A DNA stretch of 32,000 nt, from positions 1 through 32,000 of the forward strand of contig LVZN01000023.1 in the NCBI GenBank assembly GCA_001695645.1, given 5' to 3'. The number at the start of each line of letters is the position of its first letter. Position 1 is the first letter of the stretch. The notes below the pieces were generated by a model. The model did not search any database. It saw nothing but the letters and a program-made list of their open reading frames with translations, and had not been told where the DNA came from. Shown here one piece after another: positions 2,541 through 32,000 of the stretch. The stretch comes from Erysipelotrichaceae bacterium MTC7 (GTDB lineage: Bacteria > Bacillota_I > Bacilli_A > Erysipelotrichales > Erysipelotrichaceae). A program made the translations under genes and the position numbers.

Positions 2541-2666
2541 GCATCTATCATAGCTTACTCTTAGAAAAAGGAAAACCCCTCATTTGAAAATCATGTACCT
2601 GCTTTGCATGATTGATACGCCTAAGGTATAGTAAAAGTAGATATATACCCACGAGGAGGATAAGGT

Positions 2667-3038
2667 ATGAAACAATTCGATGCAAAGATTATTACGGAAC
2701 TGGTAGACACGTATATGCAAGCCGTTTACAACGGGGACATTGAGACTTTACAAACCATCTTTTATGGAGATGCAGCAATGTACGGTTACTTAAATGGATA
2801 TGGCGTCATGGCTACCCCACAAGTATTCTATGATGATATCAACAGTAAACCGACAATGAAAGAAAACGGTGATGATTGTCAGTATGTCATTACCCACCTA
2901 CAAGTAGAAGGAAACATTGCTTCTGTTTGTATGCAAGTGGAAGGTTTCTATGGTGAAGCTACTGTTATTGATATGTTTCACTTAATGAAAATTGAAGGGG
3001 TTTGGAAAATTACTTGTAAAACTTTTTCACAAAGATAG
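2667..3038 (+). CDS. NTF2-like (SnoaL / putative lumazine-binding fold) small protein
   Basis: 123 aa with RBS GAGGAGGA upstream. The pattern N-terminal helix (YMQAVYNGDIETLQTIF) plus C-terminal beta strands ending in WKI is typical of NTF2-like proteins. Confidence 0.6.
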   Translation: MKQFDAKIITELVDTYMQAVYNGDIETLQTIFYGDAAMYGYLNGYGVMATPQVFYDDINSKPTMKENGDDCQYVITHLQVEGNIASVCMQVEGFYGEATVIDMFHLMKIEGVWKITCKTFSQR

Positions 3039-3041
3039 TCA

Positions 3042-3069
3042 AAAGAAATCCACTATGGATTTCTTTTAT
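3042..3069 (+). terminator. Rho-independent terminator
   Basis: AAGAAATCCA-cta-TGGATTTCTT hairpin followed by TTATT. Confidence 0.65.
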
Positions 3070-3083
3070 TGTATAATACATGT

Positions 3084-5089: not shown

Positions 5090-5626
5090 TTATTGCCCAA
5101 AGTTAGGGTTACATAACGCATAGATGTAGTGGTCTTCCCAGTTTCCGTGAACGTAGATACTTGTTTTTGCAAGACCAACCTTTTCAAAACCACAACGTTC
5201 TAGTAAATGAATCGAATCTGTATTGTTTGGCATTACCCATGCCTCTAAGCGATGCAATTTCAATTGTTGAAATGCAAGTTGAATCACTTGTTGCATGGCT
5301 GAAGTACCATATCCCATGTTTTGAAAGTCCTGGTCAATACAATACCCAAGCCAGGCGCTTTGCATCGCCCCTCTTTCAACTTGATAGATATCAAAGGTCC
5401 CAATGAGTTCTTTGTCCACAAACAAGCCGTAGGCGTACGCCAAATCGCTCATCCGCAAAGCTAAAACATGTTCCATCCGCATTTCTTGCCCTGCTTTGGT
5501 AAAAAACGCTTCCGGTTTTGTTGGGTTAAATCGTTCAAAGTTTTCACGATTGTAGGTTTCAAATGTAACCATTTGATCAATATCTTGCACGCTTAAAAAA
5601 CGTATTTCAAAAGTTTCTTCATTCAT
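5090..5626 (-). CDS. GNAT family N-acetyltransferase (RimJ/RimL-like)
   Basis: QNMGYGTSAMQQVIQLAF (acetyl-CoA-binding-like segment) and HRLEAWVMPNNTDSIHLLERCGFEKVG, typical of the RimJ/L subgroup. Confidence 0.75.
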   Translation of the reverse strand: MNEETFEIRFLSVQDIDQMVTFETYNRENFERFNPTKPEAFFTKAGQEMRMEHVLALRMSDLAYAYGLFVDKELIGTFDIYQVERGAMQSAWLGYCIDQDFQNMGYGTSAMQQVIQLAFQQLKLHRLEAWVMPNNTDSIHLLERCGFEKVGLAKTSIYVHGNWEDHYIYALCNPNFGQ

Positions 5627-5783
5627 TGTATATCCTATCCCTTCTGCCTAACTTCTACGTTAGGGATTGTTCTATATGTATATGGTAACGTATTTCCAGT
5701 TTTTTTCCCATTGATATGACAATATATCCCAAACCACCAAACGATAAGGCACCCCATAGCTGAAGTGCCTTTATGTTTGTATG

Positions 5784-8700: not shown

Positions 8701-10469
8701 GAAATTACATCTTCTCCAAAATACGATTGAATTGCCGGTTCTGTTTTTGCCCTAATAAGTGTTGTTGCACCGTTTGCTTGTGTAACATCCAGCGTCATCG
8801 AACCATAAATCGCCGCTCCATTTCCGGTTGCTTGAATGGTTCCACCAGAGATTTTTACCGTACTTGATGTATTAGATAAATCAAGAGCTCGTTTGTACGC
8901 ACTTGTTGATGTTGACGTAATCTGACCACCATTGATTTCAATTTGTGCTTTATGCATTTGTTCGATGGCTGTCCCCGTTGAACGAATGGTTCCATCGTTA
9001 ATGGTTAAATTTGAACTTGAATGTATCGCAACTCTATTCGAACTTGTACTTTCAATGAACGTGTCTTTACCATTGATTTCGATTGGCATAGTGTCGTCCG
9101 TTCTTCTTCCACCGTCAATTGCCACTTGTGAACCAATAATTTTACCACCATTTATGACTAGTTTTTTCTTGAGTGTTGGGTCTCCCATAACACTAATAGC
9201 GGTTGAACCTGTAACTTCTCCACCATTGATTTCCACATTTCCATTTGCGTAAATACCAGCACTGTTTGATCGAAGGGTTCCCCCATTTACAACTAAACTG
9301 TGGTTAGACTCAGTTATTCCAATAGCAGTTCCAGTACCATTAACACTGGTTGCCTCAACAATACCGCTATGTATGACAATATTACCAGATGCTGGAAATG
9401 TACTTTGCTTTTTTATTGATGCAATGGCGTAACCATATTCACCAGTTGCACGGACCGTTCCACCGTTGATGACAATTGAATCCTCAAGTATATCTCCATG
9501 AAACATTCCTATAGCAATTGCATTTTTCCCTGTTGATTCAACCAAGCCACCTTTATTGACGGTTAAGGTTGCTGCACCATTCACCAAAACTGTAGGTTCA
9601 CCCTTTGTTCCCCCACTTACTTTTCCACCATTTTCAATGACTGCTTTATCCGAAGCAGAAAGAGCGGTTCCAATTGTACTTTTAACAGTTCCTTTTCCAG
9701 ATACAACCACATCATTTGCTATAATTGCTTCCAATTTATTACCTGCAAGGTCAACGATTGTTTCTGGTCCGTTTACAGTCCCACCATTGATATTTACATT
9801 TTTTGCCATAATGGTTCTAGCACTCACTTTAGATAATAGCTCCCCACCATTTATGGTTACATGACTCTCGCGCGCTAAAATGGCCGCATTTAGTTGACCA
9901 TCGTTACGGGTTATTATTTTCCCTCCATTAACGATTATTTCACTTGCACGATCTTTAAGACTTTGCGGAAAAACAATTGATGATTGTTTTGCGCTAATCA
10001 ACCCATCATTAACTATAATATTTGTTGTTTCACTCTCATTTGTGATTGCGTCCGCTTGACTGATAAGTTCCCCACCAGTATCAAGAATAAACTCACTTTG
10101 TTTAGAGGCTTTTCGAATTAAGATTAGCGTTCCAACGCGCACAGAAGAGTGTTTATACTTCGCCTTCCATACGAGTTTTTGATTATTCAATGTAACTCGC
10201 ATCGGATTATCGTCACTCATCACCAAGGCATTTTCGCCTGTAACCGTGACACTCCCATTCGCACCTACTTCATCAAGTGCCTTTTGAATATTCTCTTGCA
10301 TTTGCACGGTTGTTTGTCCTGCGCTAATCACTACGCTTTTATTTCCCGCTCTTTCTTCAATTGCAAGCTTCATACGGACATGTCCATATGGAGTAGGTAT
10401 ACTTATCGTTATGACAATTATGCATAAGATAAACACTTGCAAACCTTTTATCAGTTTGTGTTTCTTCAT
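5784..10469 (-). CDS. Giant (1561 aa) cell-surface protein: signal/anchor, ~600-aa beta-helix-like NGG-repeat region, YDG/MBG-type repeats, C-terminal TM anchor
   Basis: The N-terminus has a hydrophobic signal. More than 20 reiterations of (I/V)NGGx(I/V/L)-type motifs follow. Then come five ~86-aa repeats of the form YDG/YNG-x-VEL-GG-L ... NY-x-(P)-D-V-I, and MBG-like segments (AGTYQVYV, NYEI). The C-terminus is a hydrophobic stretch plus KNRKRK. RBS AAGGGAAG. Confidence 0.85.
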   Translation of the reverse strand: MKKHKLIKGLQVFILCIIVITISIPTPYGHVRMKLAIEERAGNKSVVISAGQTTVQMQENIQKALDEVGANGSVTVTGENALVMSDDNPMRVTLNNQKLVWKAKYKHSSVRVGTLILIRKASKQSEFILDTGGELISQADAITNESETTNIIVNDGLISAKQSSIVFPQSLKDRASEIIVNGGKIITRNDGQLNAAILARESHVTINGGELLSKVSARTIMAKNVNINGGTVNGPETIVDLAGNKLEAIIANDVVVSGKGTVKSTIGTALSASDKAVIENGGKVSGGTKGEPTVLVNGAATLTVNKGGLVESTGKNAIAIGMFHGDILEDSIVINGGTVRATGEYGYAIASIKKQSTFPASGNIVIHSGIVEATSVNGTGTAIGITESNHSLVVNGGTLRSNSAGIYANGNVEINGGEVTGSTAISVMGDPTLKKKLVINGGKIIGSQVAIDGGRRTDDTMPIEINGKDTFIESTSSNRVAIHSSSNLTINDGTIRSTGTAIEQMHKAQIEINGGQITSTSTSAYKRALDLSNTSSTVKISGGTIQATGNGAAIYGSMTLDVTQANGATTLIRAKTEPAIQSYFGEDVISIRGGLIMNESATKPAILTKEEASLSLQGGAVFSYGKSTNDVVSKPGFSPTSAGQIIAWDTQDGASQTYEELSTTDLFLAPAANVYWSTLAKNQYGISYENETTNGFIELPVQVIQKRPTKQEFTNTFANVIYNAKEQPVLVEGKNKFTTQTGGLITVHYKDKNQVVTTTAPSQAGTYEICVTTTGGTAFGPITTPLKVGTYTIEKLPLSLEHIKATNKTYDGSTSVELTGMSLHDVFESDKQNVELTIVHAKTKDANAGKLKHVYIGFTFKGSAANNYRLIFPNNLTVDILPKEITVANVKATNRVYDGTKTVELTGGTLSGFIGDDGANVRPSLGEGKIMTANVGTAKSVQTAIQLHGDYDVNNYTFVQPTDVTVNISKRELHLEDVRTVNRAYNGKTSVELQGGKLKNVVAGEDVSFDLHEGQVASAATGKNKAVSTSVTLTGKDKGNYTLQQPDDLFVDIANHVLSVKGVQTINRVYDGTEIVELRGGELEGVLAGETVSLQVGRGTLDNANAGNAKAVTTNMQLTGANAANYTIEQPSNLTVDIATKEVETKDVKAKSRAYNGSKQVTLTGGTLEGLLDVDQDDVQLIGTTGYVSSAKAEMQKPVRTDLSIAGDRAHNYKLIQPTDVLVDITKAATKGKTKEHTLQENTADTYRFDYRSLLPTLPEHQQLGNANYQLGEVNNDDGLLSEPVQLNEKDIVMHVAAVPHGKKASIPILVYSDNFEPFEVTLTLTIKEKTQLTPVFTVKDLVYDGLGHELSELTFVDANKNIVEVSPEAYSIMYMGINGTDYAPSEIAPVDAGTYQVYVNINREVYEYKGHASQQFTINKRPLHLQANDVNITVGDALPEASFVVKNLVEGHRQEDVVLAVPLLVYPVNNTQTSGKHAITISGGNVHPNYEIASYTHGVLHIQKQVENHPLVEDEHQGSQTSTSTVIEAGDVFRSTNYVVLLLLAFATTGILILKNRKRK
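6786..8090 (-). repeat. Five tandem coding repeats (period 255-264 nt) inside the surface-protein gene
   Basis: The YDG/YNG codons recur at 8034, 7773, 7509, 7254 and 6999. A 20-nt identity (GTTCCATCATAGACACGATT) links the copies at about 7252 and about 7771. Confidence 0.75.
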
Positions 10470-11704: not shown

Positions 11705-11744
11705 AAAAGAGTCTTTCCACAGTCGTGGAGAGGCTCTTCTTTTT
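11705..11744. terminator. Bidirectional terminator between convergent genes
   Basis: A 14-bp stem (11707-11720 with 11725-11738, two G-U pairs), loop AGTC, flanked by an A run on the left and a T run on the right. Confidence 0.75.
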
Positions 11745-12960
11745 ACACGTGTGGTAACTGTATCTTGATGGTAAACATATCGTTTACACTGATTGCTTGA
11801 ATCGTTCCTTTGTGGATTTCCACAATACGTTGGCAAATCGACAACCCTAAACCATGACCACCCGTTTGTGAGTTGCGATCAGCATCTGCTCGATAAAATC
11901 GTTCAAACAAGCGCTCAGTTTTTTCTTTTGGTAAGGTTGGGCTTGGGTTGCAAATACGCAGATTCGCATACTTTCCATCCTGTTGCAGTTGTACGTGAAT
12001 CGTACTGTTTGCTTCGCTATATTTTAACGCATTTTCAAGTAAGGAAACTACAACTTGTTCCAACAGTTCTTTTTGTCCATTGACTTGCACATGATGCGCA
12101 ATATTTGGTTCAAGCTGTAACTGTTTTTCAAATGCCTGTACTTCCATCATTAAACACACTTCTTCAACCACCAAAGAGAAATCAAAGATTTGATGTTGTT
12201 TTACATAATCTTCATCACTTCTTGATAGATAGAGCAAAGAATTGGTTAGTTTGGTGGTTCGCTTGACTTCATCTTGAATGTTATCAAGCCACCGTCTTTG
12301 ATTAGAAATCGTATCTTCACCACTTGATAACATGGCATCTACATTTGTTGAAATGATGGTTAGTGGTGTTTTTAGTTCATGACTTGCATCACTAACAAAG
12401 TCCTGTTGCTTTTTAAAGGTGCTTTGTATAGGTGCGATTGCCCGACCTGCAAAATAGTTTGAGAACCAAACGACAACCACTAAAGAAATTACACTAACTA
12501 AACCAAATGCCATCATCATTTGCTTTAGCATGTCACTTTGCTGGTTGATGTCCAAAAAAGCGATTTTATATTTCCCAGCGTTTTCTTGCACTTTATATGC
12601 AAAGTATCGTCCGTTCAATTGAAAGTATCCATTTGTTTTATGAATATCCACTTTCTCGACCAAACTTGTATACACGGTTTCATTCAACGAAACAAAGGAT
12701 GGTTCACTGGTTGCTAAAATTGTTTTATCTTTATCCACAACAGCCAGATACGAGATACTTTCTGGACCATTGCTATCTTCTTTATTTGGTATCATTGGTG
12801 CTTTAAAATGAACATCCAGGGTTTTACTTAATTCCTTTTGAATATCGCGATTGGTGTTTTGAACAGTTAAAAAGCCTACCGCAAAAAATGCAGTTAAAAG
12901 AATGCAGGCGATGCTGATTACATTCATCAGTAGAAATTTCTTTTTTAATTTCTTAAACAT
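11743..12960 (-). CDS. Sensor histidine kinase (two TM helices, ~130-aa extracytoplasmic domain, HisKA + HATPase)
   Basis: H-box SHELKTPLT and the G-box region GGHGLGLSI. Start MFKKLKKK (12960) with GGAGGTG upstream; 8-nt overlap (ATGTTTAA) with the response regulator. Confidence 0.85.
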   Translation of the reverse strand: MFKKLKKKFLLMNVISIACILLTAFFAVGFLTVQNTNRDIQKELSKTLDVHFKAPMIPNKEDSNGPESISYLAVVDKDKTILATSEPSFVSLNETVYTSLVEKVDIHKTNGYFQLNGRYFAYKVQENAGKYKIAFLDINQQSDMLKQMMMAFGLVSVISLVVVVWFSNYFAGRAIAPIQSTFKKQQDFVSDASHELKTPLTIISTNVDAMLSSGEDTISNQRRWLDNIQDEVKRTTKLTNSLLYLSRSDEDYVKQHQIFDFSLVVEEVCLMMEVQAFEKQLQLEPNIAHHVQVNGQKELLEQVVVSLLENALKYSEANSTIHVQLQQDGKYANLRICNPSPTLPKEKTERLFERFYRADADRNSQTGGHGLGLSICQRIVEIHKGTIQAISVNDMFTIKIQLPHV

Positions 12961-13636
12961 CTTGCACCTCCACGAGTTTGTATCCAACCCCACGAAGGGT
13001 TTGAATTGCCGTATGGGATTGCACATATTTTAGTTTTTTACGTAAAAAAGAAATATAAACTTCCACATGGTTAAAACTAGCATCGCTTTCATAGCCCCAA
13101 ACTTTATCCAGCAATAATTCCTTTGTTGTCACCGTTGTTTGTTGCGACATTAACAATTCTAAAATCTCTGCCTCTTTCAAAGTTAAGGTGATTTGATTCC
13201 ACTTAGTTTTCAGTAATAGATTTGTTTTATCTAACTGGATATCACCAAAATATAATTCATCTTCTTCCAACATCACATGTCGACGTCTAAGATTTGCCCG
13301 AATACGTGCAAGTAACTCTTGGGTATCAAAAGGTTTAGCAATATAATCATCTGCTCCATAATCCAAACCACGTATCTTATCTTGCACATGATCCTTTGCT
13401 GTTAACATTAAAATTGGAATTTGAATGTCTTGCATGCGTAAAGCAGATAGCACTTGAAAGCCATCCTGTTTTGGCAACATCACATCCAAAAGAATCAAAT
13501 CGTGAATATTCGCTAACGCTTGATCTTCACCGTCCAACCCATCATAAGCGACGTCAACTAGATAATTGTTTTTTCTAAGAATTTGTGCAAGTGAATCTGC
13601 TAGTTTCTTTTCATCTTCAATAATTAATATTCGCAT
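12953..13636 (-). CDS. OmpR/PhoB-family response regulator
   Basis: Receiver domain (MRILIIEDE, DLILLDVMLP, LTAK) plus a winged-helix C-terminus (LTLKEAEILELL..., RGVGYKL). I chose the canonical MRILII start. Confidence 0.85.
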   Translation of the reverse strand: MRILIIEDEKKLADSLAQILRKNNYLVDVAYDGLDGEDQALANIHDLILLDVMLPKQDGFQVLSALRMQDIQIPILMLTAKDHVQDKIRGLDYGADDYIAKPFDTQELLARIRANLRRRHVMLEEDELYFGDIQLDKTNLLLKTKWNQITLTLKEAEILELLMSQQTTVTTKELLLDKVWGYESDASFNHVEVYISFLRKKLKYVQSHTAIQTLRGVGYKLVEVQDV

Positions 13637-13666
13637 ATATATACCCATAGTAAGTATATCATTCTT

Positions 13667-13699
13667 CCTTAAAAAAACCTTAAATTCCATTTAACCTTC
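13667..13699. promoter_or_regulatory. Direct repeats (candidate OmpR-type response-regulator binding site) in the divergent intergenic region
   Basis: CCTTAAA occurs at 13667 and 13678, 11 bp apart. A third CCTT at 13695 overlaps the -35 position of a TATACT box (13717-13722). Confidence 0.35.
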
Positions 13700-13757: not shown

Positions 13758-14558
13758 ATGGCAAAAGAAGTATTTGGACGACATGAATGTAAATTCATAG
13801 TCAATCAGCAACAAAAAGATGCTCTACTAGTTGCACTCAAAAAGAGCATCGAACATGATATCTACAACAAAGATGGAAAACCTTACACCATCTACAACTA
13901 CTACATTGATGATGCTTACAACACGTATCTACAACGTTCCGTTAGCAAACCACGATATAAAGAAAAACTACGAATTCGTGGATATGCACCATTTACTGAT
14001 ACCGGTATCGTCTTTGTGGAAGTGAAAAAGAAATACAAGAAGTATGGAAATAAACGAAGGGTACAAATGACTTTTCAAGAAGCAAAAGCATTTATTGAAA
14101 AAGGTGTGTTACCTGCTGATATCTCTAATATCAATCAACAAGTATTATACGAGTTGAAAACGATGATTGATAAACAGCGGTTACACCTGAAAGTACATGT
14201 GCAATATGATCGATATGCGTTTTTCTCAACTACAGAAAAAGGTTTACGTTTTACCTTTGATACAAACATCATAAGTCATCGCAAGCATGACAAAACCCGC
14301 ATTTTACTCGAACCCGGTTTGTATGTTTTAGAAATAAAAGCCGAAGGAAGTTTTCCTTTGTGGTTGGTCAAACTTTTACAACAACACCAAATATATAAAC
14401 AAAGCTTTTCTAAAATAGGAAAAGAATATGAGCTTTATACAAAAGAACTAGCAGAAAAGAAACACGCAAATAAGCAAATGGAGGAATTATATGTTAGAAA
14501 CACTGTTCAATACAACTACAGACACAACAACCCTATCACTCGAAAATCTACTTTGTAG
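13758..14558 (+). CDS. VTC-domain protein (polyphosphate-polymerase-like triphosphate-tunnel/CYTH-like domain)
   Basis: N-terminal RHECKFIV strand, YKEKLRIRGY, and VFVEVKKKYKKYGNKRRV basic strands match bacterial VTC-domain proteins as I recall them. RBS AAAGGAAC. Confidence 0.7.
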   Translation: MAKEVFGRHECKFIVNQQQKDALLVALKKSIEHDIYNKDGKPYTIYNYYIDDAYNTYLQRSVSKPRYKEKLRIRGYAPFTDTGIVFVEVKKKYKKYGNKRRVQMTFQEAKAFIEKGVLPADISNINQQVLYELKTMIDKQRLHLKVHVQYDRYAFFSTTEKGLRFTFDTNIISHRKHDKTRILLEPGLYVLEIKAEGSFPLWLVKLLQQHQIYKQSFSKIGKEYELYTKELAEKKHANKQMEELYVRNTVQYNYRHNNPITRKSTL

Positions 14559-15174
14559 CATGGGGATTGCTTTACTATTAGGAGCAATGATTGCTTTGAC
14601 CTATAAACACACAAGTAAAAACCACTATTCGCAAAACTTAATCATCAGCTTACTTTTACTTCCCGTTTTAATGAGTTGTGTATTTTTATTGATTGGAAAT
14701 AACGTTGCCGGTGCATTTTCTTTAGCAGGTGTCTTTTCAGTCATTCGCTTTCGAAGCGCACCAGGAAGTAGTCGCGATATTGTATATATTCTCTTTTGCG
14801 TTGCCGTTGGTTTAGCATGTGGACTTCAAGCACTACTGTTTGCGATTGTCATCACGGTATGCATTTGTATCGTCTTCTTTTCATTGGAAGTGTTTCAAAG
14901 TCATAACCAACATAGTAAACGTTTGAAACTAGTAATGCTGGTTCCTGAAGAAATGAACGTGGAAGAACTCTTTTCAAACATTCTTCAAGACTACACAAAA
15001 GCATTTGAACTTGTGCGCATGCGTACCAAAGATTTCGGAAGTGTGTTTGAACTAACGTACATAATATCTATGTATGAAAGTCAAAATAAACATGAACTTC
15101 TTGATGTCCTACGAATGCATAATGCCAATTTAAATATTTCCATCAGTAACCTTAGTCAAATTGACGAGTTTTAG
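14491..15174 (+). CDS. DUF4956 family integral membrane protein
   Basis: Four predicted TM helices and the hallmark GAFSLAGVFSVIRFRSAPGSSRDIVYILFCVAVGLACG, plus a ~90-aa soluble C-terminus. The ATG has GGAGGA 5 nt upstream and overlaps the VTC ORF by 68 nt. Confidence 0.75.
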   Translation: MLETLFNTTTDTTTLSLENLLCSMGIALLLGAMIALTYKHTSKNHYSQNLIISLLLLPVLMSCVFLLIGNNVAGAFSLAGVFSVIRFRSAPGSSRDIVYILFCVAVGLACGLQALLFAIVITVCICIVFFSLEVFQSHNQHSKRLKLVMLVPEEMNVEELFSNILQDYTKAFELVRMRTKDFGSVFELTYIISMYESQNKHELLDVLRMHNANLNISISNLSQIDEF

Positions 15175-15182
15175 GAGATCCT

Positions 15183-16769
15183 ATGAAACACATAAAACAG
15201 ATATTTATTGTATTGCTATGTATGATAATTGTCAGTGGTTGTCAAACAAGCAAGCAAAAAGCAACAAACACAGACAACGAAGAGAATGTAATTACGCTAG
15301 ATAAGGATACGATTAACTGTAAAACTGATGGTGTTGTAATTACAGGAACAACTGCAACCATCACCAAAGCTGGAAACTACACGATAACTGGCACACTGGA
15401 CAATGGACAAGTGATTGTCGATACCACAGACGATGCGAAGGTGACCCTTATTTTGGTTAACGCTAACATTCATAGTGAAACAAGTAGTGCAATTTATATT
15501 AAAAATGCGGAGACAACGACCATCACGCTAAAAGAAAACTCAGAGAATCATCTCAGCGATGCATCAACATACAGTAGTCTCGATGAGAGTGGTGAACCAG
15601 ACGCAACACTTTTTGCAAAAGATGATCTAGTGATTAATGGTACGGGTTTATTATCTATTCAAGCAAATTACAAAGATGGCATTGTTGGTAAAGATGATGT
15701 AATCATTGAAGATGCAACGATCAAGATACAAGCAAATGATGATGGAATCCAAGGTAAGGATTCACTGGGACTGAAAAATGCAAACCTTGCAATTGAAGCA
15801 GTAAATGATGCCATCAAATCTACGAATGATACAGATGCTAAAAAAGGAACCATCGAAATTCATGGTGGCAGCTATCAATTGCAAACATCGGGAAATGATG
15901 AATCAAGTCATAAAGCAATTAAAGCATATACGTCACTCACCATTAGTGAAGGAACATTTACGATTGATGCAACAGATGATGCTTTACATGCACAAAATGT
16001 CACAATTGATGGGGGGCAATAAACAATCCAAAGTGGTGATGATGGCATTCATGCTGATACAAGTTTAGTCATCAATCAAGGTACGATTGATATCCAAACT
16101 TCTTACGAAGGAATTGAAGCAAGTGATTTGCAAATCCACGGTGGAACCATTTCTATTGTGTCTACTGATGATGGAATCAATGCTGCAGGAGGTAGCGATG
16201 ATTCCACCCAATCAACATCTCAAAGTTTTCCTGGTGGCCCTGGTAGCGATAGGTTTTCATCTTCAACTGGTACGTTACTAATCACAGGTGGAAATATCCT
16301 AGTTAACGCAGAAGGTGATGGTATTGATGTCAATGGTGATGCAACAATTGCTGGTGGTGAAATTCTTGTCTACGGACCAACAAATGACGGCAACGGCGCA
16401 CTTGATTACGATGGAACATTTCTTGTGAATGGAGGCAGTCTAGTTGCCTATGGCTCTAGTGGAATGGCACTTAACATAAGTAGTACGTCTACACTCCCAT
16501 CCGTCATGATCAACTTGGACACTTCGATACAAGCCGGTGCGCAAGTATCCATTCTTGACGGAGAAGGCAATGAAATCTATCATGGAACGAACGCTAAAAA
16601 AGCCAATTCCTTAATCATTGCAAATACAGCATTACAGCTCAACTCAACCTATACCTTACAAGTGGACGATTCAACCATCACGACCTTTACTTTTACCACC
16701 ACAGTTACTACCATTGGTAATAGTGGTCAAATGAACGGTGGACCTACTGACTTTGGTCGCCCTCGCTAA
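15183..16769 (+). pseudogene. Cthe_2159-type (carbohydrate-binding beta-helix) lipoprotein gene interrupted by a single in-frame TAA at 16020-16022
   Basis: Lipobox IIVSGC. Repeats of the form I-x-GG-x-I...DDGI run through both pieces: 15183-16022, and 16023-16769 in the same frame with no further stops. The repeat unit is cut mid-motif (ITIDGGQ*TIQSGDDGIHAD). Confidence 0.7.
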
Positions 16770-24327: not shown

Positions 24328-24369
24328 CTTTTCCCTTGCTAATGTAGAAGTACATACATGGAGGTTTTT

Positions 24370-24849
24370 ATGAAAGGAAAACATATACCAATTATTTTAT
24401 TTCTATTTCTAACAATGATTTTGGGGTTCGCTGTTATTGTTTATGGATTTTTTATTCCAGTTTTGGCTGATCAATATGCTTATGCATCACCTGAGTTAAG
24501 TCATATCAAAACCATTGTGCTTACCTTTGTTGAACTCACAGGACTTCCTGTTTTAGGTATCATCGTCTTGGGTTATGCAATTGGTCTACGGATTATGAAG
24601 TTTGAACACTTTACTAGAAAAACTGCAACCTACATGCGTTATATTTATATTCTTGCACTAGGTGATGCCACTTACTTTTCCATTGGCATGTTTGTCATGA
24701 CAATGAACGGATTCATTGATGCTCCTGTCGTTATTGGTTCAGGTACTGCGATTATCTTTGCCTTAGCCGTTGCTGGAGCCAGTTATGCACTTAGCTACTT
24801 CATCTATGAAGCGGCCCAGTTACAAGAAGAAAGTGAGTTGACCATCTAA
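24370..24849 (+). CDS. DUF2975-like multi-pass membrane protein
   Basis: Four TM helices, about 160 aa, directly paired with a YozG-like HTH gene as in the conserved DUF2975/YozG module. Start at 24370 (GGAGG 4 nt upstream). Confidence 0.6.
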   Translation: MKGKHIPIILFLFLTMILGFAVIVYGFFIPVLADQYAYASPELSHIKTIVLTFVELTGLPVLGIIVLGYAIGLRIMKFEHFTRKTATYMRYIYILALGDATYFSIGMFVMTMNGFIDAPVVIGSGTAIIFALAVAGASYALSYFIYEAAQLQEESELTI

Positions 24850-25073
24850 TGGACGAAAAAGGAAAGATTGTATTCAACATTGATGTCATGCTAGCAAAAC
24901 GGAAAATGAGCGTAACTGAACTATCTAAACAAGTGGGTATCAATATGGCAAATATCTCCATTTTAAAAAATGGAAAAGCAAAAGCCATCAAGGTGCAAAC
25001 CTTACTCAAGTTATGTGAGGTGCTTGATTGTCAGCCTGGTGACTTACTTAGCTATGAAACATTGAATGATTAA
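24849..25073 (+). CDS. Small XRE-family HTH regulator (YozG-like)
   Basis: IVFNIDVMLAKRKMSVTELSKQVGINMANISILKNGKAKAIKVQTLLKLCEVLDCQPGDLL is the canonical YozG-type sequence. Its start overlaps the upstream stop (TAATG). Confidence 0.8.
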   Translation: MDEKGKIVFNIDVMLAKRKMSVTELSKQVGINMANISILKNGKAKAIKVQTLLKLCEVLDCQPGDLLSYETLND

Positions 25074-25127: not shown

Positions 25128-25181
25128 TGTATTGTCATTGCCAACATTTCATCAAGTATGTACAATCACGTTTGTCATAGA

Positions 25182-25223
25182 AAAAACCACCAACGAATAC
25201 CGATTGTATTTGTGGTGGTTTTT
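25182..25223 (-). terminator. Terminator of the pump/RCK operon (usable in both directions)
   Basis: AAAAACCACC pairs with GGTGGTTTTT (10-bp stem), with flanking A and T runs. It lies 16 nt downstream of the last RCK gene. Confidence 0.65.
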
Positions 25224-25238
25224 AAAGAATATTAGGAT

Positions 25239-25898
25239 TTATGAAAATAAGTTATTTAACATTTCCAATTGATCGTCATAGCATAGTACCATGATGTGAT
25301 CGTTTTGCTCAATTGTCGTATTTCCTTTTGGAATGACAACTTCATGATCGCGGGTAATGGCAATCAAGACTGCCTTATCAGGGATTTGTAAATCCTTAAT
25401 TTCTTTGCCGATGGCTGGTGAATTTACTGCTACACAAATTTGGCTAATTGAGTACTCGCCACGGTTTAATTTCATCAATGTCATTACATTACGCATGTCA
25501 ATTTCATCAACGACCAAACGAGCCAATAACTCAGCTTGGTTGACTTTTACATCAACTCCCATTTCTAAGGTAAACAGCCATTCGTTGCTCGGGTGATTGA
25601 CACGTGCAATAACTCGGTCTACCCCAAACTCATATTTTGCTATCGTTGCACTAACAAGGTTGACTTCATCTTTCCCTGTTACACATACAACAACATCAGC
25701 ATCTTTCATTCCTGCTTCAGCCATAACAAGCGGATCACTACCATCACCTTCCACTAGAATGTTTGCATCATATTTAGAACGGATTTTTTGCAATACTTTT
25801 TCACGGGACTCAATCACTTTTACATCGATGTCATGTTTCACTAAAATATCACTAATGTAAGAACCTACTTGTCCTCCACCAATCACAATAACTTTCAT
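25239..25898 (-). CDS. RCK-domain protein (TrkA-N + TrkA-C; KtrA/TrkA-like K+ transport regulator), copy 2
   Basis: Rossmann motif VIGGGQVG, TrkA-N core, C-terminal TrkA-C (IGKEIKDLQIPDKAVLIAITRD...). RBS AGGAGG. Confidence 0.85.
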   Translation of the reverse strand: MKVIVIGGGQVGSYISDILVKHDIDVKVIESREKVLQKIRSKYDANILVEGDGSDPLVMAEAGMKDADVVVCVTGKDEVNLVSATIAKYEFGVDRVIARVNHPSNEWLFTLEMGVDVKVNQAELLARLVVDEIDMRNVMTLMKLNRGEYSISQICVAVNSPAIGKEIKDLQIPDKAVLIAITRDHEVVIPKGNTTIEQNDHIMVLCYDDQLEMLNNLFS

Positions 25899-25908
25899 GA
25901 TGCACCTC

Positions 25909-26556
25909 CTAGTCCATGCCCAGTAGGTTTTTAAGCGTTCCTACCGAAGCATTTAACACAGCAATAAATAAGCCGTCATTTGGTTGTAGAACTGTCCCAC
26001 CAGTTGGCAAGAATGCATCATTGTTTCGTTCAATGGAAACAACACGAACTTCACCAAGGCGGTTAATTTCCTCAATGGTTTTTCCAACGAGCAGTGTTGG
26101 TACATCAACTTTAACTAACTCAACCCCACCACCAAGTGACATAATGCCATCCAATTGGGTATAGGTGATAATTTCACTTGCTCGAGTAATTCCCCAATCG
26201 GTTGTTGAGATGGTTTGCACACCAAGCATCGAATAAATCTTTGCTTTATCACGGTCATATAGACGCGCAATTACGTGTGGAACCCGGTAGATATTTTTAG
26301 AGATTCTGGCAATCAAAGCGTTTGTTTCATCAGAATTTGTACAACTGATGAGCGCATCGCTTCTTTCAATCCCTGCTTGTTCAAGTACTTTTTTATCAAA
26401 CCCTAAACCGTGAACTGCTCTAAACGTACTTGTTTTACCAAGCTTATCCAACACTTCTTGATCGGTATCAATTAAGGTTATGTTGTGGCCTTCTAATGAT
26501 AGTTTGCTTGTTAAGCCGCTACCCATTCTTCCACCACCGACGATTATAATATTCAT
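25909..26556 (-). CDS. RCK-domain protein (TrkA-N + TrkA-C; KtrA/TrkA-like), copy 1
   Basis: IVGGGRMG Rossmann motif and TrkA-C (LVGKTIEEINRLGEVRVVSIERN). Its ATG directly follows the pump's TAA (TAAATG). Confidence 0.85.
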   Translation of the reverse strand: MNIIIVGGGRMGSGLTSKLSLEGHNITLIDTDQEVLDKLGKTSTFRAVHGLGFDKKVLEQAGIERSDALISCTNSDETNALIARISKNIYRVPHVIARLYDRDKAKIYSMLGVQTISTTDWGITRASEIITYTQLDGIMSLGGGVELVKVDVPTLLVGKTIEEINRLGEVRVVSIERNNDAFLPTGGTVLQPNDGLFIAVLNASVGTLKNLLGMD

Positions 26557-29361
26557 TTACTTCACCCCTTTGCTAGTTGCTTTTGACTTTTTATACATGA
26601 TTTTTTTACGTAATTCTTCTAGTGCAATAACCGGAATTGGAATGATTGCAAGAATGACCCATTGATGCAAGCCAAGTGGTCCGGTGTTAAAGACATCTTG
26701 CAAGAATGGCACATACATTAGCAATGCAAGCAATGCAATTTCAAAAACAATTCCAAACACGATTTTTTTATTTGAAAACAAGCCGACCGTAAATACGGAA
26801 CGTTTGTTTGTTCGACAGTTAATCACAGCTCCAATTTGACAGAAGACAATCGCTGCAAGTGTCATCGTTGTTGCTTCTTTATAAACTGCGCCAGAGCTAG
26901 CAAGCGGCTCGTTTGGCCATCCTGCTGCCATGTTGATTAAGAAATATCCAGCCATGGAAATCACAGCTGCAATCAAACCATACCATAAGAAGGCTTTAAT
27001 GATTAACGATTTACTTAATAAACGATCGGTTTTCTTCCGTGGTGGTTGTTCCATAATTCCTTCTTCTGGAAGTTCTGTACCTAGTCCAAGTGCAGGTAAC
27101 ATATCCGTACCAAGGTCAATTGCCAAGATTTGCATAACGGTTAATGGCAGTGGAATCAGTCCACCAGAGAATAAGAAGGCTGCACTAGGCACGGCTTCTG
27201 CCATATTCGAATTAAGAATGTAAAGTAAGAAACGACGAATGTTTGCATAAACAGCACGTCCTTCTTCAACAGCTTTTACAATACTTGCAAAGTTATCATC
27301 CGTTAAAATCATATCGGCAGCTTCTTTTGCCACATCGGTACCAGTAATACCCATCGCAACACCAATATCTGCTTTTTTAAGTGCAGGTGAATCATTCACT
27401 CCATCACCGGTAACGGCAACGGTTTCACCCATTTCTTGCAGTTTGCTAACAACGCGGTATTTTTGTTCTGGTGCAACTCTGGCAAAGATGATTTCATCTT
27501 TTAGTGCATGTTTCAGTTCATCATCTGACATACTTTCCAGTTCCATACCCGAAACAACACGTGGGTGCTCACCTTTGACAATCCCAATTCGTTTGGCAAT
27601 ACTTTCTGCAGTTAATCCATAGTCACCAGTGACCATCACAATACGGATGCTTGCCTTGTGACAAAGTTCTACCGCTGCTGCCACTTCTGGACGTGGGGGA
27701 TCAAGCATGACTTCAAGACCGACAAACACCAAATCTTGTTCAATAATTTCTGGTGTGTAGGCACTCATTTGCACCGGCACATTGCTATCTTTTGTAATTG
27801 GTCGATAACTCAAAGCTAACACACGAAGTCCATTACGTGCATAGGTATCATTTGCATCCATGATTTTTTGACGATAGTCATCACTCATTTCAACTTTTTG
27901 ACCATCCACCATAATATGCGTCGACAATTCCATAACTTCTTTTGGCGCACCTTTTACAAAGGCAATTCGCTTACTTCCATCAAATGCATCGTGCAGTTGA
28001 TGAATGGTTGTCATACGTTTACGACGTGAATCAAATGGAAGTTCACGTACTCGTGGGGCTTGTTCATTCATCTGTTTCATATCAATGCCAGCTTTTTTGG
28101 CAGAGACACTTAAACAAGCTTCGGTTGGATCTCCTAGTACCGTGTAACGATCGTTTTCCTCGTTAGGGGGAACGATACGCGCATTGCTACATAAAGCCAT
28201 ACCACGAAGTAGTAATTCCAAATCTTTATCATCTTTATAAGTTACTGGTTTTCCATCAAGTTCGACTGAACCTTCACTTGAATAACCCAAACCAGTGACT
28301 TTATACTCTTTATTTGCTAACCAAATATCGCTAACCGTCATTTCATTTTGCGTCAAAGTCCCAGTCTTATCCGAACAAATGACACTGGTACTACCCAAGG
28401 TTTCCACCGCACTTAGTTTTTTTACCAAGGCGTGTTCTTTGGCCATTCGTTGGACTGCCATTGCCAAAGATAAAGTTACCGTTGGTAGTAGACCTTCTGG
28501 AATAAAGGCAACCATCATTCCTAAAGCAAAAATAAAACTTTTCGCAATGGGATCATGTACAAATAAAATGGCTGATAAGAAAAAGAATAACCCAATACCA
28601 GCAGCAATCAATGAGATTTGACGCGTTAGCCGGTCAAGTTCTTTTTGCAGTGGACTTTTATCAACGTCCATGTTTTGTGTCAGGTTTGCAATTTTACCAA
28701 ACTCAGTATTCATTCCAATGGCTGTTACGACTGCTTTCCCAGAACCACTGGATACACTTGTTCCCGCAAAGATTAAGTTTGGATATTCGAAGCGTGTCAA
28801 ATCCGCCTTTATTACAGCATCGCTTTGCTTGTGTACCGGATTGCTTTCTCCAGTTAAGGCACTTTGATTAGCTTGAAAATCAGAGGTTTCAACAAGACGT
28901 GCATCCGCACTAATCTTATCACCTTCCTCAACTAACATCACATCGCCAGGCAACAATTCTTCCGTTAGGATTTGTTGATCTTTTCCATCACGAATCACAC
29001 GTGCATAGGATGGCAACATCTTCTTTAAGGCATCGGTTGCTTTACCTGCTTGAAACTCTTGCCAAAAACTAAAGAGCCCGTTGATCACATTAACTAACCA
29101 AATCGCAATTCCTAACTCTGGCATATCGGCAATGATGGCTACAAGCCCACCAAACCATAGCAAAATTGCCATCATTGAAGTAAAGTGTCCTAGAAATAGT
29201 TTCCAGGTTGGCTCCCCTTTTACTTCTTCAATTTCATTTTTTCCATAGGTAGCGCGCAGGCTTTCAACTTCACTAGTTGATAGACCTTGTGGTTTACTAC
29301 CTAGAGCTTCATAAACTTCTTGGGGTTGAAGTTTATGAATGTCCACATGTTTCTTCTCCAT
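26557..29361 (-). CDS. P-type cation-transporting ATPase, type IIC-like (Na,K/H,K-ATPase alpha-subunit-like)
   Basis: DKTGTLT, TGES, TGDGVNDSPALKKADIGVAMG. TM4 IPEGLLPTVT, TM5 YILNSNMAEAVP and TM6 ILAIDLGTDMLPALGLG closely mirror Na,K-ATPase PEGLLATVT, YTLTSNIPEITP and ILCIDLGTDMVPAISLAYE. Start MEKKHV (29361) with GGAAAGG upstream. Confidence 0.85.
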   Translation of the reverse strand: MEKKHVDIHKLQPQEVYEALGSKPQGLSTSEVESLRATYGKNEIEEVKGEPTWKLFLGHFTSMMAILLWFGGLVAIIADMPELGIAIWLVNVINGLFSFWQEFQAGKATDALKKMLPSYARVIRDGKDQQILTEELLPGDVMLVEEGDKISADARLVETSDFQANQSALTGESNPVHKQSDAVIKADLTRFEYPNLIFAGTSVSSGSGKAVVTAIGMNTEFGKIANLTQNMDVDKSPLQKELDRLTRQISLIAAGIGLFFFLSAILFVHDPIAKSFIFALGMMVAFIPEGLLPTVTLSLAMAVQRMAKEHALVKKLSAVETLGSTSVICSDKTGTLTQNEMTVSDIWLANKEYKVTGLGYSSEGSVELDGKPVTYKDDKDLELLLRGMALCSNARIVPPNEENDRYTVLGDPTEACLSVSAKKAGIDMKQMNEQAPRVRELPFDSRRKRMTTIHQLHDAFDGSKRIAFVKGAPKEVMELSTHIMVDGQKVEMSDDYRQKIMDANDTYARNGLRVLALSYRPITKDSNVPVQMSAYTPEIIEQDLVFVGLEVMLDPPRPEVAAAVELCHKASIRIVMVTGDYGLTAESIAKRIGIVKGEHPRVVSGMELESMSDDELKHALKDEIIFARVAPEQKYRVVSKLQEMGETVAVTGDGVNDSPALKKADIGVAMGITGTDVAKEAADMILTDDNFASIVKAVEEGRAVYANIRRFLLYILNSNMAEAVPSAAFLFSGGLIPLPLTVMQILAIDLGTDMLPALGLGTELPEEGIMEQPPRKKTDRLLSKSLIIKAFLWYGLIAAVISMAGYFLINMAAGWPNEPLASSGAVYKEATTMTLAAIVFCQIGAVINCRTNKRSVFTVGLFSNKKIVFGIVFEIALLALLMYVPFLQDVFNTGPLGLHQWVILAIIPIPVIALEELRKKIMYKKSKATSKGVK

Positions 29362-29551
29362 AATTACCTTTCCCATAACATTCTAACAAATGTAAATATG
29401 AATGGATGCAAAATCCATAAGCACAATCATACTCTTTTCTTCCTATAAATCAATACTAAAGCTAAATGATTTTTCTAGCAATTGAGATACTTGAAAGTAA
29501 TGTTAAGATTTGGTTAATATATGGTAAAAAAACAGGTATTTTTCATGGCTT

Positions 29552-29597: not shown

Positions 29598-30239
29598 TTA
29601 ATAGATGGTGAACTCACTTAAATGATAATCAATGATACCTTCTTCCCGCATCTTTGAAAGTTCCGCACTGAGGGCAGAGCGATCAACGGACAAATAATCT
29701 GCAAGTTCATTTCGATTGAATGGAATCGTAAAACGATAATTTCTTTGTTGCTGGGCTTGCATCGAAAGAAAAGCCAACACCTTTTCGCGAATCTTACGTT
29801 TGGTTAAAATATCCATTTTTTGGGTCATAAAGACATTCTTACTAGCTAAAATATACATCATGTTTTTCATCAGTTGCGGATAACGCACCCCAAAATCGAT
29901 AAACTGTTCAGGTGTAATAAACAAAAGATTGGTACTCTTTTGAGCTACCACATTCACTGGTAGTTCATCCACACCAGAAAAGGCAAAGGACTCACAAAAG
30001 ATTTCACCTTTTCCAAGCACATTGACAATGCTTCGATTGCCCCAGTAATCGAGTTTGGAAATTGTGACATTTCCTTTAAGGATAAAACCAATGGCGTACT
30101 GACTTTCACCCATGGAAAATACTGTTGTTTCATGCTCGTAGATTTTATAGGTTAAACTATTGAGAATATCTTCAACTTCTGGGTTCTTTAAACCACGAAA
30201 TAACGGATGTGTATAAATCATTTGAAAAACTTTATTCAT
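29598..30239 (-). CDS. Crp/Fnr-family transcriptional regulator
   Basis: N-terminal cNMP-binding-like beta-roll (LFRGL..., GEIFCESFAF) and a C-terminal HTH (RNELADYLSVDRSALSAELSKMREEGII). I chose the start MNKVFQ (30239) because GGAG lies 7 nt upstream. Confidence 0.8.
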   Translation of the reverse strand: MNKVFQMIYTHPLFRGLKNPEVEDILNSLTYKIYEHETTVFSMGESQYAIGFILKGNVTISKLDYWGNRSIVNVLGKGEIFCESFAFSGVDELPVNVVAQKSTNLLFITPEQFIDFGVRYPQLMKNMMYILASKNVFMTQKMDILTKRKIREKVLAFLSMQAQQQRNYRFTIPFNRNELADYLSVDRSALSAELSKMREEGIIDYHLSEFTIY

Positions 30240-30252
30240 ATCATGCTCCATC

Positions 30253-30268
30253 TGTTGTAATAACAACA
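30253..30268. promoter_or_regulatory. Candidate Crp/Fnr-type operator TGTTGT-N4-ACAACA
   Basis: Perfect 6-bp inverted arms with a 4-bp spacer (the same geometry as TTGAT-N4-ATCAA), in the divergent region. It overlaps the -35 position of a TATAGT box (30285-30290) facing the Fe-S gene. Confidence 0.4.
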
Positions 30269-30334
30269 TACTTAATAATTTCACTATAGTATTCTATGCA
30301 TACAAAGTCAAATGACATGAAGGAGATATACCAT

Positions 30335-31069
30335 ATGAAACGAAACATTGTAACGATAAATGAAGAATTATGTAATGGTTGTGCTGCTTGTGCAGTAGCC
30401 TGTCACGAAGGTGCCATCGCTATGATTAACGGAAAAGCAAAATTGATCAAAGAAGATTACTGTGATGGGCTTGGCGATTGTTTACCAAGTTGTCCAACTG
30501 GAGCCATCACAATTGAAGAAAAAGAAGTGGAAGCATATGACCAACAAGCCGTCGATGCCCACATGAAGGCGATGGCAGAACTAGGAAATCCACACCATAA
30601 AAACGTGGAAGTTCCTATTCATGCCCACAGTGGTTGTCCTGGTTCCATGGCAAAAGCGTTGCATCCACAAACTGAAACGATAAATGCAGTGCAAGAAGCA
30701 AGTCAAAGCCAACTGCGTCAATGGCCGATTCAAATCAAACTTGTGCCAACATCTGCCCCATATTTTGATCAAGCAAACCTACTCATCGCCGCAGACTGTA
30801 CAGCTTACGCTTATGCAAGTTTCCACCAAGATTTCATCAAGAATCACATTTGTATCATCGGTTGTCCAAAACTTGATGAAGGTGATTACAGCGAAAAACT
30901 CGAGCAAATCATTAAACAAAACGACATCAAAAGTGTCACAATTGTACGTATGGAAGTACCTTGTTGCGGTGGGTTGGAGTTTGCTGCTAAAACCGCTTTA
31001 CAAAACAGTGGTAAATTCATTCCATGGCAAGTTAAAACAATCAGTATCGATGGAAATATCATCGACTAA
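30335..31069 (+). CDS. 4Fe-4S dicluster domain protein with a Cys-rich C-terminal domain
   Basis: CNGCAACAVACHEGAI and CDGLGDCLPSCPTGAI ferredoxin motifs; C-terminal ADCTAYAY...IGCPKLD...VPCCGG. RBS AAGGAG. Confidence 0.8.
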   Translation: MKRNIVTINEELCNGCAACAVACHEGAIAMINGKAKLIKEDYCDGLGDCLPSCPTGAITIEEKEVEAYDQQAVDAHMKAMAELGNPHHKNVEVPIHAHSGCPGSMAKALHPQTETINAVQEASQSQLRQWPIQIKLVPTSAPYFDQANLLIAADCTAYAYASFHQDFIKNHICIIGCPKLDEGDYSEKLEQIIKQNDIKSVTIVRMEVPCCGGLEFAAKTALQNSGKFIPWQVKTISIDGNIID

Positions 31070-31081: not shown

Positions 31082-31416
31082 ATGAACAAAGTCGTAAAAA
31101 CATTACGCCAAGTGAAGTTGTAGAACTTAAAAACTTGGTACAAGCAAACCCTGGTGAAGTCGTAAGTAAAATCTTTGTTCAAAACGAACATGTATCGATG
31201 ACCCTATTTTCGTTCGCCCAAGGTGAAGAAATTGGAGCACACACCTCAAAAGGAGATGCGCTTGTAAGCATTCTTGAGGGAAGTGCAGAAATCACAATCG
31301 ATGGTAATGTGTTTACAGTAAACGCTGGTGAAAGTATTTTAATGCCAGCTGATATCTTACACGCACTTTATGCAAAAGAACCATTTAAAATGCAACTTAC
31401 TCAAATGTTTGCCTAA
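31082..31416 (+). pseudogene. Cupin-domain protein with an apparent 1-nt frameshift in an A5 run (31096-31100)
   Basis: The SD-preceded ATG at 31082 (AGGAAG) reads MNKVVKTLRQVKL then stops. The cupin frame (ITPSEVVELKNLVQANPGEVVSK...GAHTSKGDALVSILEG...) is open upstream to 31069 but has only a TTG (31135) as a start. A6 instead of A5 gives MNKVVKNITPSEVVEL... Confidence 0.6.
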
Positions 31417-31464: not shown

Positions 31465-32000
31465 TTACTTCATTTTAAATAAGCGTTTCAGTGCATACAC
31501 AACGATGGTTGCACCTGTTGCAAAAATGCTTATGTAAATCCAATTTTCAATTCCTAAAGGCACAGTACCAAGTACCGAATTAAAGAATGGTACATATATG
31601 GCCACCAACTGCAAACTAATGGCAACGATCATGGCAATGATCATCGACTTGTTTTGCAATAGGGTTTTGTCTAAACCAAACACTTTCAAACGTCGCACAT
31701 TTAAGATGTGCAATAGTTGCATAATTGCCATTAAGGTAAAGGTTGTCGTTTGTGCTTCAATCACAGAAACCTCGCGATGCAACATGAATGCATAGATTCC
31801 AAATGCACTTAAACCTAAAACCAACCCACTTAGTAAAATCGGTTTTAGAAAATCTGCAGACAATAAACCTTGTCCTTTCTTCCGCGGTGGTTGATCCATG
31901 ATGCTATCTTCTGCTGGTTCAAATCCCAAAGACATGGCTGGTAGTATATCAACGACAAGATTTAACCAAAGAATATGTAAAGGTAACACAGGTAAATCCG
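31465..32000 (-). CDS. P-type ATPase (type IIA/Ca2+-ATPase-like), C-terminal part; the 5' part lies outside the window
   Basis: LPLHILWLNLVVDILPAMSLGFEPAEDSIMDQPPRKK matches the SERCA/bacterial Ca-ATPase TM6 pattern (LWVNLVTDGLPATALGF). The frame is open to the right window edge. Confidence 0.8.
   Translation of the reverse strand, partial: DLPVLPLHILWLNLVVDILPAMSLGFEPAEDSIMDQPPRKKGQGLLSADFLKPILLSGLVLGLSAFGIYAFMLHREVSVIEAQTTTFTLMAIMQLLHILNVRRLKVFGLDKTLLQNKSMIIAMIVAISLQLVAIYVPFFNSVLGTVPLGIENWIYISIFATGATIVVYALKRLFKMK

Follow-up and report, generated by a model that had tools for sequence, protein, structure and literature searches.

A minus-strand operon in the genome of the gut-type Erysipelotrichaceae bacterium MTC7 encodes a P-type ATPase resembling the Na,K-ATPase, followed directly by two TrkA-like proteins of the RCK family, here called RCK1 and RCK2. 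It spans positions 29361-25239 of a 32,000-nucleotide stretch (positions 1 to 32,000 of contig LVZN01000023.1, assembly GCA_001695645.1) that was analysed as a whole and is referred to as the window. The pump–RCK1–RCK2 module is genuine, conserved and specific to one clade, and combines components of known kinds in a new way. Gating of K+ channels and of channel-like transporters (Trk, Ktr, MthK and BK) is the usual task of RCK rings, which also regulate some antiporters. On the sequence evidence, we give roughly even weight for and against the whole picture of a beta-less Na,K-ATPase-like K+ pump gated by a TrkA-like RCK1/RCK2 hetero-ring.

Organization of the operon

The three genes were located by open reading frame (ORF) calls and direct reading, and follow one another on the minus strand in the order pump, RCK1, RCK2. 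The pump gene (26557..29361) encodes a Na,K-ATPase-like prokaryotic P2 pump of 934 residues. Counted from the first ATG, the ORF would instead span 29376..26557 and encode 939 residues. The start at 29361 is preferred as the probably real one, because the Shine-Dalgarno sequence GGGAAAGG at 29374-29367 lies 5' of this ATG, and because the NCBI protein P0001, identical to the pump, is 934 residues long.

At the junction between the pump and RCK1 (26554..26570, minus strand), a Shine-Dalgarno-like AAGGGGTGA lies within the last pump codons, and the pump TAA abuts the RCK1 ATG to give TAAATG at 26559-26554. RCK1 (25909..26556, minus strand) has 215 residues and RCK2 (25239..25898, minus strand) has 219 residues, and both consist of a TrkA_N and a TrkA_C domain. 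The Shine-Dalgarno sequence of RCK2, AGGAGG (25905..25910, minus strand), overlaps the TAG of RCK1, with 10 nucleotides between this stop and the RCK2 ATG. An earlier note on this DNA had described the 934-residue pump with Na,K-type motifs in transmembrane segments (TM) 4, 5 and 6, both of these junctions and a terminator at the operon end, and all of these were borne out by reading and, for the terminator, by folding (see below).

Conservation of the pump–RCK1–RCK2 module

The synteny of the module, which the earlier note had proposed to map, was analysed in two sets of loci. The first set comprised seven genome or assembly loci, all with the order pump, RCK1, RCK2. The module is present in Breznakia blatticola, a Lactobacillales metagenome-assembled genome (MAG) and a Bacillota MAG, with pumps that are 92%, 72% and 62% identical to that of the window, respectively, and also in C. 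thermosuccinogenes, Anaerocolumna aminovalerica, Caproiciproducens galactitolivorans and a Logan MAG. The second set comprised 80 metagenomic loci collected with a TM5-TM6 profile of the Na,K-ATPase-like clade, the ORFs of which were scored with the window proteins. A locus was taken as informative if it contained at least 1.5 kb of downstream sequence and if its pump ORF had 700 residues or more.

The three genes keep a constant order and strand in 20 loci with GC contents of 30-69% and unrelated flanks, and the arrangement is far beyond chance because these 20 loci are independent. Conservation of the synteny favours the proposal of the earlier note, which had named its absence as a result that would count against it. 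Exact junctions, determined for four loci and the window, range from a 4-nucleotide overlap to a spacing of 19 nucleotides, with the exception of a 198-nucleotide gap between RCK1 and RCK2 in locus L009. Among the informative loci, the RCK pair was found with 12 of 15 pumps scoring at least 1050 bits and with 4 of 6 pumps scoring 800-1050 bits, and with none of the 31 pumps below 800 bits. Inclusion of four further stand-alone close pumps gives an RCK pair beside 16 of 25 close pumps, compared with 0 of 31 distant ones, whether Na,K-ATPase-like or Ca-like (Fisher p = 4.9e-8). The distances of the pump, RCK1 and RCK2 co-vary (r ~0.75, Mantel p = 5e-4), demonstrating that the three travel as a unit. 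In locus L003, from a Bacillota MAG, a gene for a KdpD-type sensor kinase (KdpD domain and DUF4118; 5313-6782, plus strand) lies right after pump–RCK1–RCK2, and thus ties the module to K+ sensing.

The adjacency could also be due to co-transfer of a selfish or mobile kind, the genes being functionally unconnected. Co-transfer would fit the taxonomic scatter of the genomes that carry the module, and the pump of Raineyella lies near an IS481 transposase. Nevertheless, the fixed gene order, the overlapping or very short junctions, the deep divergence over which both paralogs have kept their motifs, and the restriction of the association to one clade all indicate selection on the pump-RCK unit. 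Co-transfer is therefore a highly improbable explanation.

Close pumps without RCK genes

Lineages that keep the pump alone include Lactobacillaceae and Raineyella. Close pumps without the RCK pair were found in Liquorilactobacillus mali, Limosilactobacillus, Ligilactobacillus acidipiscis, Raineyella fluvialis, an abundant uncultured relative and locus L018. Since close pumps occur without RCK genes, the pair is accessory, as would be the case for regulators, and from this pattern the RCK proteins look regulatory, and not structurally necessary for the pump. Pfam analysis of the genes downstream of the pump in the RCK-less loci revealed no consistent replacement regulator, the proteins encoded there being NmrA-like, MerR, ZIP, DsbD and others. 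In L018, the RCK-less pump gene is followed by one (7943-8917, plus strand) for a Rossmann protein of the NmrA-like, NAD(P)H-binding type; this protein might sense nucleotides for the pump in place of the RCK pair, or its position might be a coincidence.

A single ORF in the high-GC metagenomic locus L082 (4967-8191, plus strand) contains TM1-6 of a pump and a complete RCK2-like domain, with an RCK fragment upstream at 3460-3864. This candidate for a natural fusion was rejected as a decayed locus: the linker is Arg/Pro-rich and resembles out-of-frame translation, TM7-10 and RCK1 have been lost, and the RCK domain retains its own Met.

Domains and ion-binding residues of the pump

The pump matches the Pfam families Cation_ATPase_N, E1-E2_ATPase, Cation_ATPase, Hydrolase and Cation_ATPase_C, which together make up all P-type ATPase domains. 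Direct reading identified the phosphorylation motif CSDKTGTLT (28351..28377, minus strand), and LTGES and the hinge TGDGVNDSPALK are also present, as in the P2 P-type superfamily.

Key residues of the cation sites, all encoded on the minus strand, were compared with those of Na,K-ATPase. TM4 reads IPEGLLPTVT (28474..28503), the Na,K-ATPase counterpart being VPEGLLATVT, and contains the Glu equivalent to E327. In TM5 (YILNSNMAEAVP, 27187..27222), Y771, S775, N776 and E779 are kept, while T774 is replaced by Asn; the S775 position is occupied by Lys in H,K-ATPase. In TM6 (LAIDLGTDMLPA, 27091..27126), D804 and D808 are kept. The pump has IDLGTD at this position, whereas Ca pumps have N..TD and the P2A Ca2+-ATPases are defined by LWxNLxTD (N796, T799 and D800) together with Ca ligands in TM5 and TM8. 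The resulting site I/II signature ESNEDD (E327, S775, N776, E779, D804, D808) is the same in the window pump and bovine alpha1.

The region of Na+ site III differs. TM8 (VFCQIGAVINCRTNKRS, 26797..26847) keeps Q923, while D926, the site III carboxylate, is replaced by Ala. The residue at this position is unconserved in the close family (A, M, V or E), and there is thus no selection for a ligand there. A pump that has lost site III but retains sites I and II would be expected to handle two monovalent cations in each cycle. The ectoloop between TM7 and TM8 is ~25 residues shorter, as seen in a jump in the alignment with 2zxe (query 819/839, chain 882/927), and ORF calls and Pfam analysis detected no beta-like gene in the operon.

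Phylogenetic position of the pump

Comparison with proteins in the PDB gave matches of 534 bits for the Na,K-ATPase alpha subunit, 525 for Listeria LMCA1, 496 for SPCA and 462 for SERCA. The formal best NCBIfam match is TIGR01522 (PMR1-type Ca, IIA2), with a score of 636.9 that is below its cut-off of 798.3, closely followed by TIGR01106 (IIC, Na,K/H,K), with 629.4, also below its cut-off of 946.1. The IID (ENA) model scored 470 bits and the KdpB model 116.6, against a KdpB cut-off of 527.9.

A neighbor-joining tree with bootstraps was then constructed from the window pump, bovine alpha1, five named homologs and 137 of the 150 nearest representatives, drawn from 1.84 billion protein clusters. 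Bovine alpha1, the sequence of which was rebuilt from alignment text, was the sole eukaryotic reference. It shares with the window pump a group of ~50 taxa; the 67 Ca-type representatives, all of which bear the TM6 N..D, lie without exception on the other side of the tree. Bootstrap support for the Na,K-ATPase side was 100/100 with all columns, 99/100 without TM4, TM5, TM6 and TM8, and 63/100 with the cytoplasmic domains only. The clade on this side takes in Firmicutes, Actinobacteria, Melainabacteria, Cyanobacteria and Desulfuromonadia. The tree thus assigns the pump to an extensive clade of prokaryotic proteins that lies towards Na,K-ATPase within the P2 family, and not to a Ca/Mg clade, membership of which the earlier note had named as a result that would count against its proposal.

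The pump had also been described as P2C-type, a label that holds for its Na,K-like ligands and its grouping with Na,K-ATPase. It is not a bona fide, full member of P2C, because site III is lost (D926 is Ala), the beta subunit is absent (neither beta loop nor beta gene), and the TIGR01106 score of 629 falls short of 946. By comparison, four metagenomic pumps (L088 at 590-3766, L036, L041 and L043) have every residue of the Na,K-ATPase signature, D926 among them, and L088 equals bovine alpha1 at all 12 scored positions (EYTSNEDDQDET). These four may be true P2C pumps, of archaeal, bacterial or eukaryotic origin; no RCK neighbours were found beside those with enough downstream sequence. Seven relatives of the pump (P0148, P0162, P0190, P0243, P0249, P0256 and P0259) carry an extra ~330 residues at the C-terminus or 400-780 residues at the N-terminus, which BLAST did not identify as RCK.

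These data bear on the possibility that the pump does not serve K+, and exports Na+ (as ENA does), Ca2+ or another cation, with the RCK pair tuning the pump or signalling to other targets. Such a role would agree with the PMR1-type Ca model as formal best match, at 637 bits and below cut-off, and with the names 'potassium/sodium efflux' or 'Ca2+-transporting' ATPase that relatives bear in several databases. Signalling elsewhere has a parallel in S. mutans, where CabPA, a member of the TrkA family, reportedly binds the regulator VicR. On the other hand, TM6 has D..TD and not the N..TD of Ca pumps, the full site I/II set is that of Na,K-ATPase, the tree sets the pump apart from Ca-type pumps, and the ENA model scores much lower. 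Furthermore, it is nearly always K+ flux that RCK proteins control, and a KdpD gene adjoins the module in L003. We therefore consider a substrate other than K+, or a different direction of transport, unlikely.

Nucleotide-binding motifs of RCK1 and RCK2

The TrkA_N/TrkA_C domains of the two RCK proteins were detected by Pfam with E-values of 1e-26/7e-12 and 2e-25/8e-16. RCK1 and RCK2 are 25% identical to each other, and the nearest solved relatives of both are Vibrio TrkA, in which RCK1 and RCK2 are tandem parts of one chain, and the split TrkA of T. maritima, TM1088A/B. The scores of RCK1 (128.6) and RCK2 (157.4) with the NCBIfam TrkA equivalog model are below its cut-off of 293, each protein having half the length of TrkA. 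Together, RCK1 and RCK2 look like a split TrkA. The description "TrkA/KtrA-like" in the earlier note is accordingly right as to TrkA, given the TrkA_N and TrkA_C domains and the TrkA relatives, and does not extend to KtrA.

RCK1 contains GGGRMG and a conserved Asp30, and RCK2 contains GGGQVG and a conserved Glu30. The GxGxxG motif and the acidic residue ending beta2 are intact in both paralogs in all 19 loci compared, and both N-lobes should thus bind nucleotide.

We next considered cyclic di-AMP (c-di-AMP), the signature for which in RCK_C is (I/L)(I/L)x2DxRx5N(I/L)(I/L) (PMC10117811). This signature is absent in all orthologs: the best matches cover 4-5 of 7 positions, lie in non-homologous places and equal the shuffled expectation. 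The test is a weak one, as the RCK_C of BusR, a solved c-di-AMP receptor tried as positive control, also lacks the literal signature. The C-lobes of both RCK proteins match TrkA-type C-lobes. Binding of c-di-AMP, one of the ligands that the earlier note had proposed to assay, by RCK1 or RCK2 is unlikely as judged from these sequences, and ATP, ADP or NAD(H) sensing would be the better guess, because the proteins are TrkA-type and the canonical c-di-AMP signature is missing.

A TrkH-, KtrB- or Kef-type membrane protein was sought by Pfam analysis of all ORFs of at least 120 residues in the 32-kb window. None was found, in agreement with the earlier reading that the operon and its flanks lack a KtrB/TrkH/KefC-type partner, and kdpA and kdpC were likewise not detected in the window.

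The resemblance to TrkA raises the possibility that the pair is the gating ring of an ordinary Trk or Ktr system with its membrane subunit encoded elsewhere, and that the operon only co-expresses Na+ (or H+) extrusion with K+ uptake. Both the structural and the NCBIfam comparisons put the RCK proteins closest to genuine TrkA, trkA is known to occur in split form or apart from its partner gene (in E. coli, for example, it is not linked to trkH), and in some lineages the pump does without RCK neighbours. What this explanation does not account for is the position of the pair directly 3' of this one pump clade, in fixed order, with mostly short or overlapping junctions, in loci of 30-69% GC with unrelated flanks. 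Moreover, the pair is never beside the more distant pumps, the three genes co-vary, and TrkH or KtrB was present in none of the flanks examined. An unlinked Trk or Ktr partner thus appears rather improbable, and regulation of the adjacent pump is preferred.

Proposed mechanism

A mechanism can be proposed in which the operon encodes a two-site pump that keeps sites I and II, has lost the Na+-specific site III and would work without a beta subunit. From these residues and the RCK association we infer the transported ions and the direction of transport: K+ would most likely be taken up at the expense of ATP, in exchange for H+ or Na+. By analogy with the Na,K- and H,K-ATPases, the E2P state would capture K+ on the outside and bring it into the cell, and the E1 state would export H+ or Na+. 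The regulator would be a TrkA-like ring built from the two diverged half-size RCK paralogs, the Rossmann lobes of which may bind ATP/ADP or NAD(H) and, less likely, c-di-AMP. Acting on the A, N and P domains of the pump, the ring could turn pumping on or off with energy or K+ status, and such control would avert futile use of ATP or K+ overload. Formation of the hetero-ring and its physical coupling to the pump are likewise predictions. The specific proposal, that the RCK1/RCK2 hetero-ring docks on the cytoplasmic domains of the pump and gates ATP-driven K+ uptake by nucleotide status, is tentative, and we hold it with slightly less assurance than the overall picture.

Several observations weigh against this proposal. 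The RCK pair has been lost in several lineages, and the pump therefore does not need it. A BLAST comparison of the two RCK proteins with the 150 nearest representatives of the pump, including those with extensions of 150-780 residues, detected no pump-RCK fusion, and contact between the pump and the RCK proteins is putative. Only eight positions of the pump are conserved exclusively where RCK genes are linked (S156, P199, T412, V413, Y540, E591, R596 and T856), and most of these, T856 apart, belong to its A, N and P domains; the signal is thin, and they may be taken as a weak lead to a docking surface. Over its whole length the pump is as similar to Ca pumps as to Na,K-ATPase, and the tree that separates the two was built by neighbor joining from a set without P2B, P2D and P3 references. 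The search that found no TrkH or KtrB covered the window and the annotated flanks of the other loci, and an orphan TrkH or KtrB elsewhere in the genome would have escaped it. Finally, we know of no member of the bacterial Na,K-ATPase-like clade with a measured substrate.

If the proposal is correct, an RCK ring would for the first time be seen to control a primary ion pump, and RCK regulation would reach P-type ATPases. The module would also represent a widespread route of K+ uptake in bacteria, anaerobic Firmicutes among them, that has been overlooked and often goes under the wrong names 'Ca2+-transporting ATPase', 'haloacid dehalogenase' or 'TrkA'. With one catalytic chain, no beta subunit and two cation sites, the pump would provide a simple bacterial system for the study of Na,K-ATPase-type sites, and would bear on the role of prokaryotic P2C-like pumps (PMC10654040).

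Other features of the window

Upstream of the pump, a promoter-like TTGATT-16 nt-TATGAT (29426..29453, minus strand) matches the consensus at 9 of 12 positions and is suggested as the pump promoter, with the number of promoter-type matches in this region being the same as in shuffled sequences. The site comes after a hairpin (29575-29553, minus strand) that closes the upstream gene. This gene (29598-30284, minus strand) encodes a Crp/Fnr-family regulator with cNMP_binding and HTH_Crp_2 domains, and lies directly 5' of the pump on the same strand, with the hairpin between them. At the other end, the operon is closed by an intrinsic terminator (25181..25223, minus strand) consisting of a hairpin and a U-run. 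It was found by direct folding (-17.2 kcal/mol, z = -4.61, with 0 of 200 shuffles equally good), a simple scan being blind to its long interrupted stem.

Two ORFs are divergent from the Crp/Fnr-family gene, one Cys-rich with several CxxC-type motifs (30296-31069, plus strand) and one of 93 residues (31135-31416, plus strand). Beyond them lies another P2-type ATPase (31465-32000, minus strand), which runs off the window edge and is represented by its C-terminal part. Its TM6 reads LWLNLVVD (in 31989..31465), as expected from the Ca-type pattern first noted for this partial pump, and one genome region therefore holds both a Ca-type and a Na,K-ATPase-like pump.

Just 3' of the operon, on the opposite strand, genes for a DUF2975 membrane protein and a 74-residue HTH_26 (Cro/C1-type) regulator (24358-25073, plus strand) overlap by stop and start. 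Further away, a cluster encoding VTC-domain, DUF4956 and Cthe_2159 carbohydrate-binding-domain proteins (13758-16022, plus strand) adjoins a two-component system (11743-13690). A protein of 1561 residues (5784-10469, minus strand), for which five YDG-domain repeats are the sole Pfam match, may be a large surface protein. Analysis of the whole window with Rfam at gathering thresholds revealed tRNA only, and thus no c-di-AMP (ydaO) riboswitch.

Comparison with known systems

To our knowledge, no primary pump has been characterised as being under the control of an RCK ring, and a full-text literature search found no description of a P-type ATPase/RCK operon pairing. The only possible precedent, of unconfirmed homology, is the S. 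mutans 'Trk1' locus. In the part of PMC7082836 that cites Binepal 2016, Trk1 is given as trkB-trk-pacL, a putative and uncharacterised K+ system, with Trk2 as the main K+ system. In RNA-seq, trk and pacL shift in parallel (2.544- and 2.540-fold), and SMU_1562 is reported to bind c-di-AMP. Like the window operon, Trk1 has one or more TrkA-family genes beside a P-type ATPase, but the order judged from locus tags appears reversed, with the pump last. The top 120 matches in a search with the Lactobacillales-lineage pump included no streptococcal proteins. The earlier statement that no characterised example is known stands in so far as Trk1 is itself uncharacterised, and is to be qualified by the existence of this possible precedent in the literature.

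Among P-type ATPases, the alpha subunits of the Na,K- and H,K-ATPases (P2C) are closest, with an identical site I/II set in TM4, TM5 and TM6, Q923 and Y771 kept, the best PDB matches, and bovine alpha1 in the same tree group. The window pump differs from them in the replacement of D926 by Ala, the lack of a beta-binding ectoloop and of a beta or FXYD gene, a short C-terminus without the ...YY tail, its bacterial host, and the attached RCK genes. The methanogen P2C pumps are also prokaryotic, have no beta subunit, contain Na,K-ATPase-like ligands and are without measured function (Palmgren 2023, PMC10654040). Archaeal P2C pumps are said there to conserve all three Na+ sites, whereas the window clade has lost the site III Asp. 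RCK or TrkA is not mentioned in that paper, the discussion of which covers archaeal pumps only.

KdpFABC is similar in being an ATP-driven P-type system for K+ uptake under the control of K+ status, and a KdpD-type kinase adjoins the module in L003. Kdp, however, is composed of the P1A subunit KdpB with the channel-like KdpA, KdpC and KdpF, all of them absent here, whereas the window pump is a P2 protein with 10 TM and canonical sites of its own, in which K+ would be bound.

On the regulatory side, RCK/KTN modules control the K+/H+ antiporters KhtTU, KefC and CpaA, and therefore act on transporters that are not channels (PMC10117811). These partners are secondary antiporters, while the partner proposed here would be a primary pump. 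TrkAH and KtrAB share with the window proteins the TrkA_N and TrkA_C domains and intact nucleotide motifs, and the two diverged halves RCK1 and RCK2 correspond to tandem TrkA or to the split TrkA of T. maritima. The difference lies in the putative membrane partner, which here would be a P-type ATPase in place of the channel-like TrkH or KtrB.

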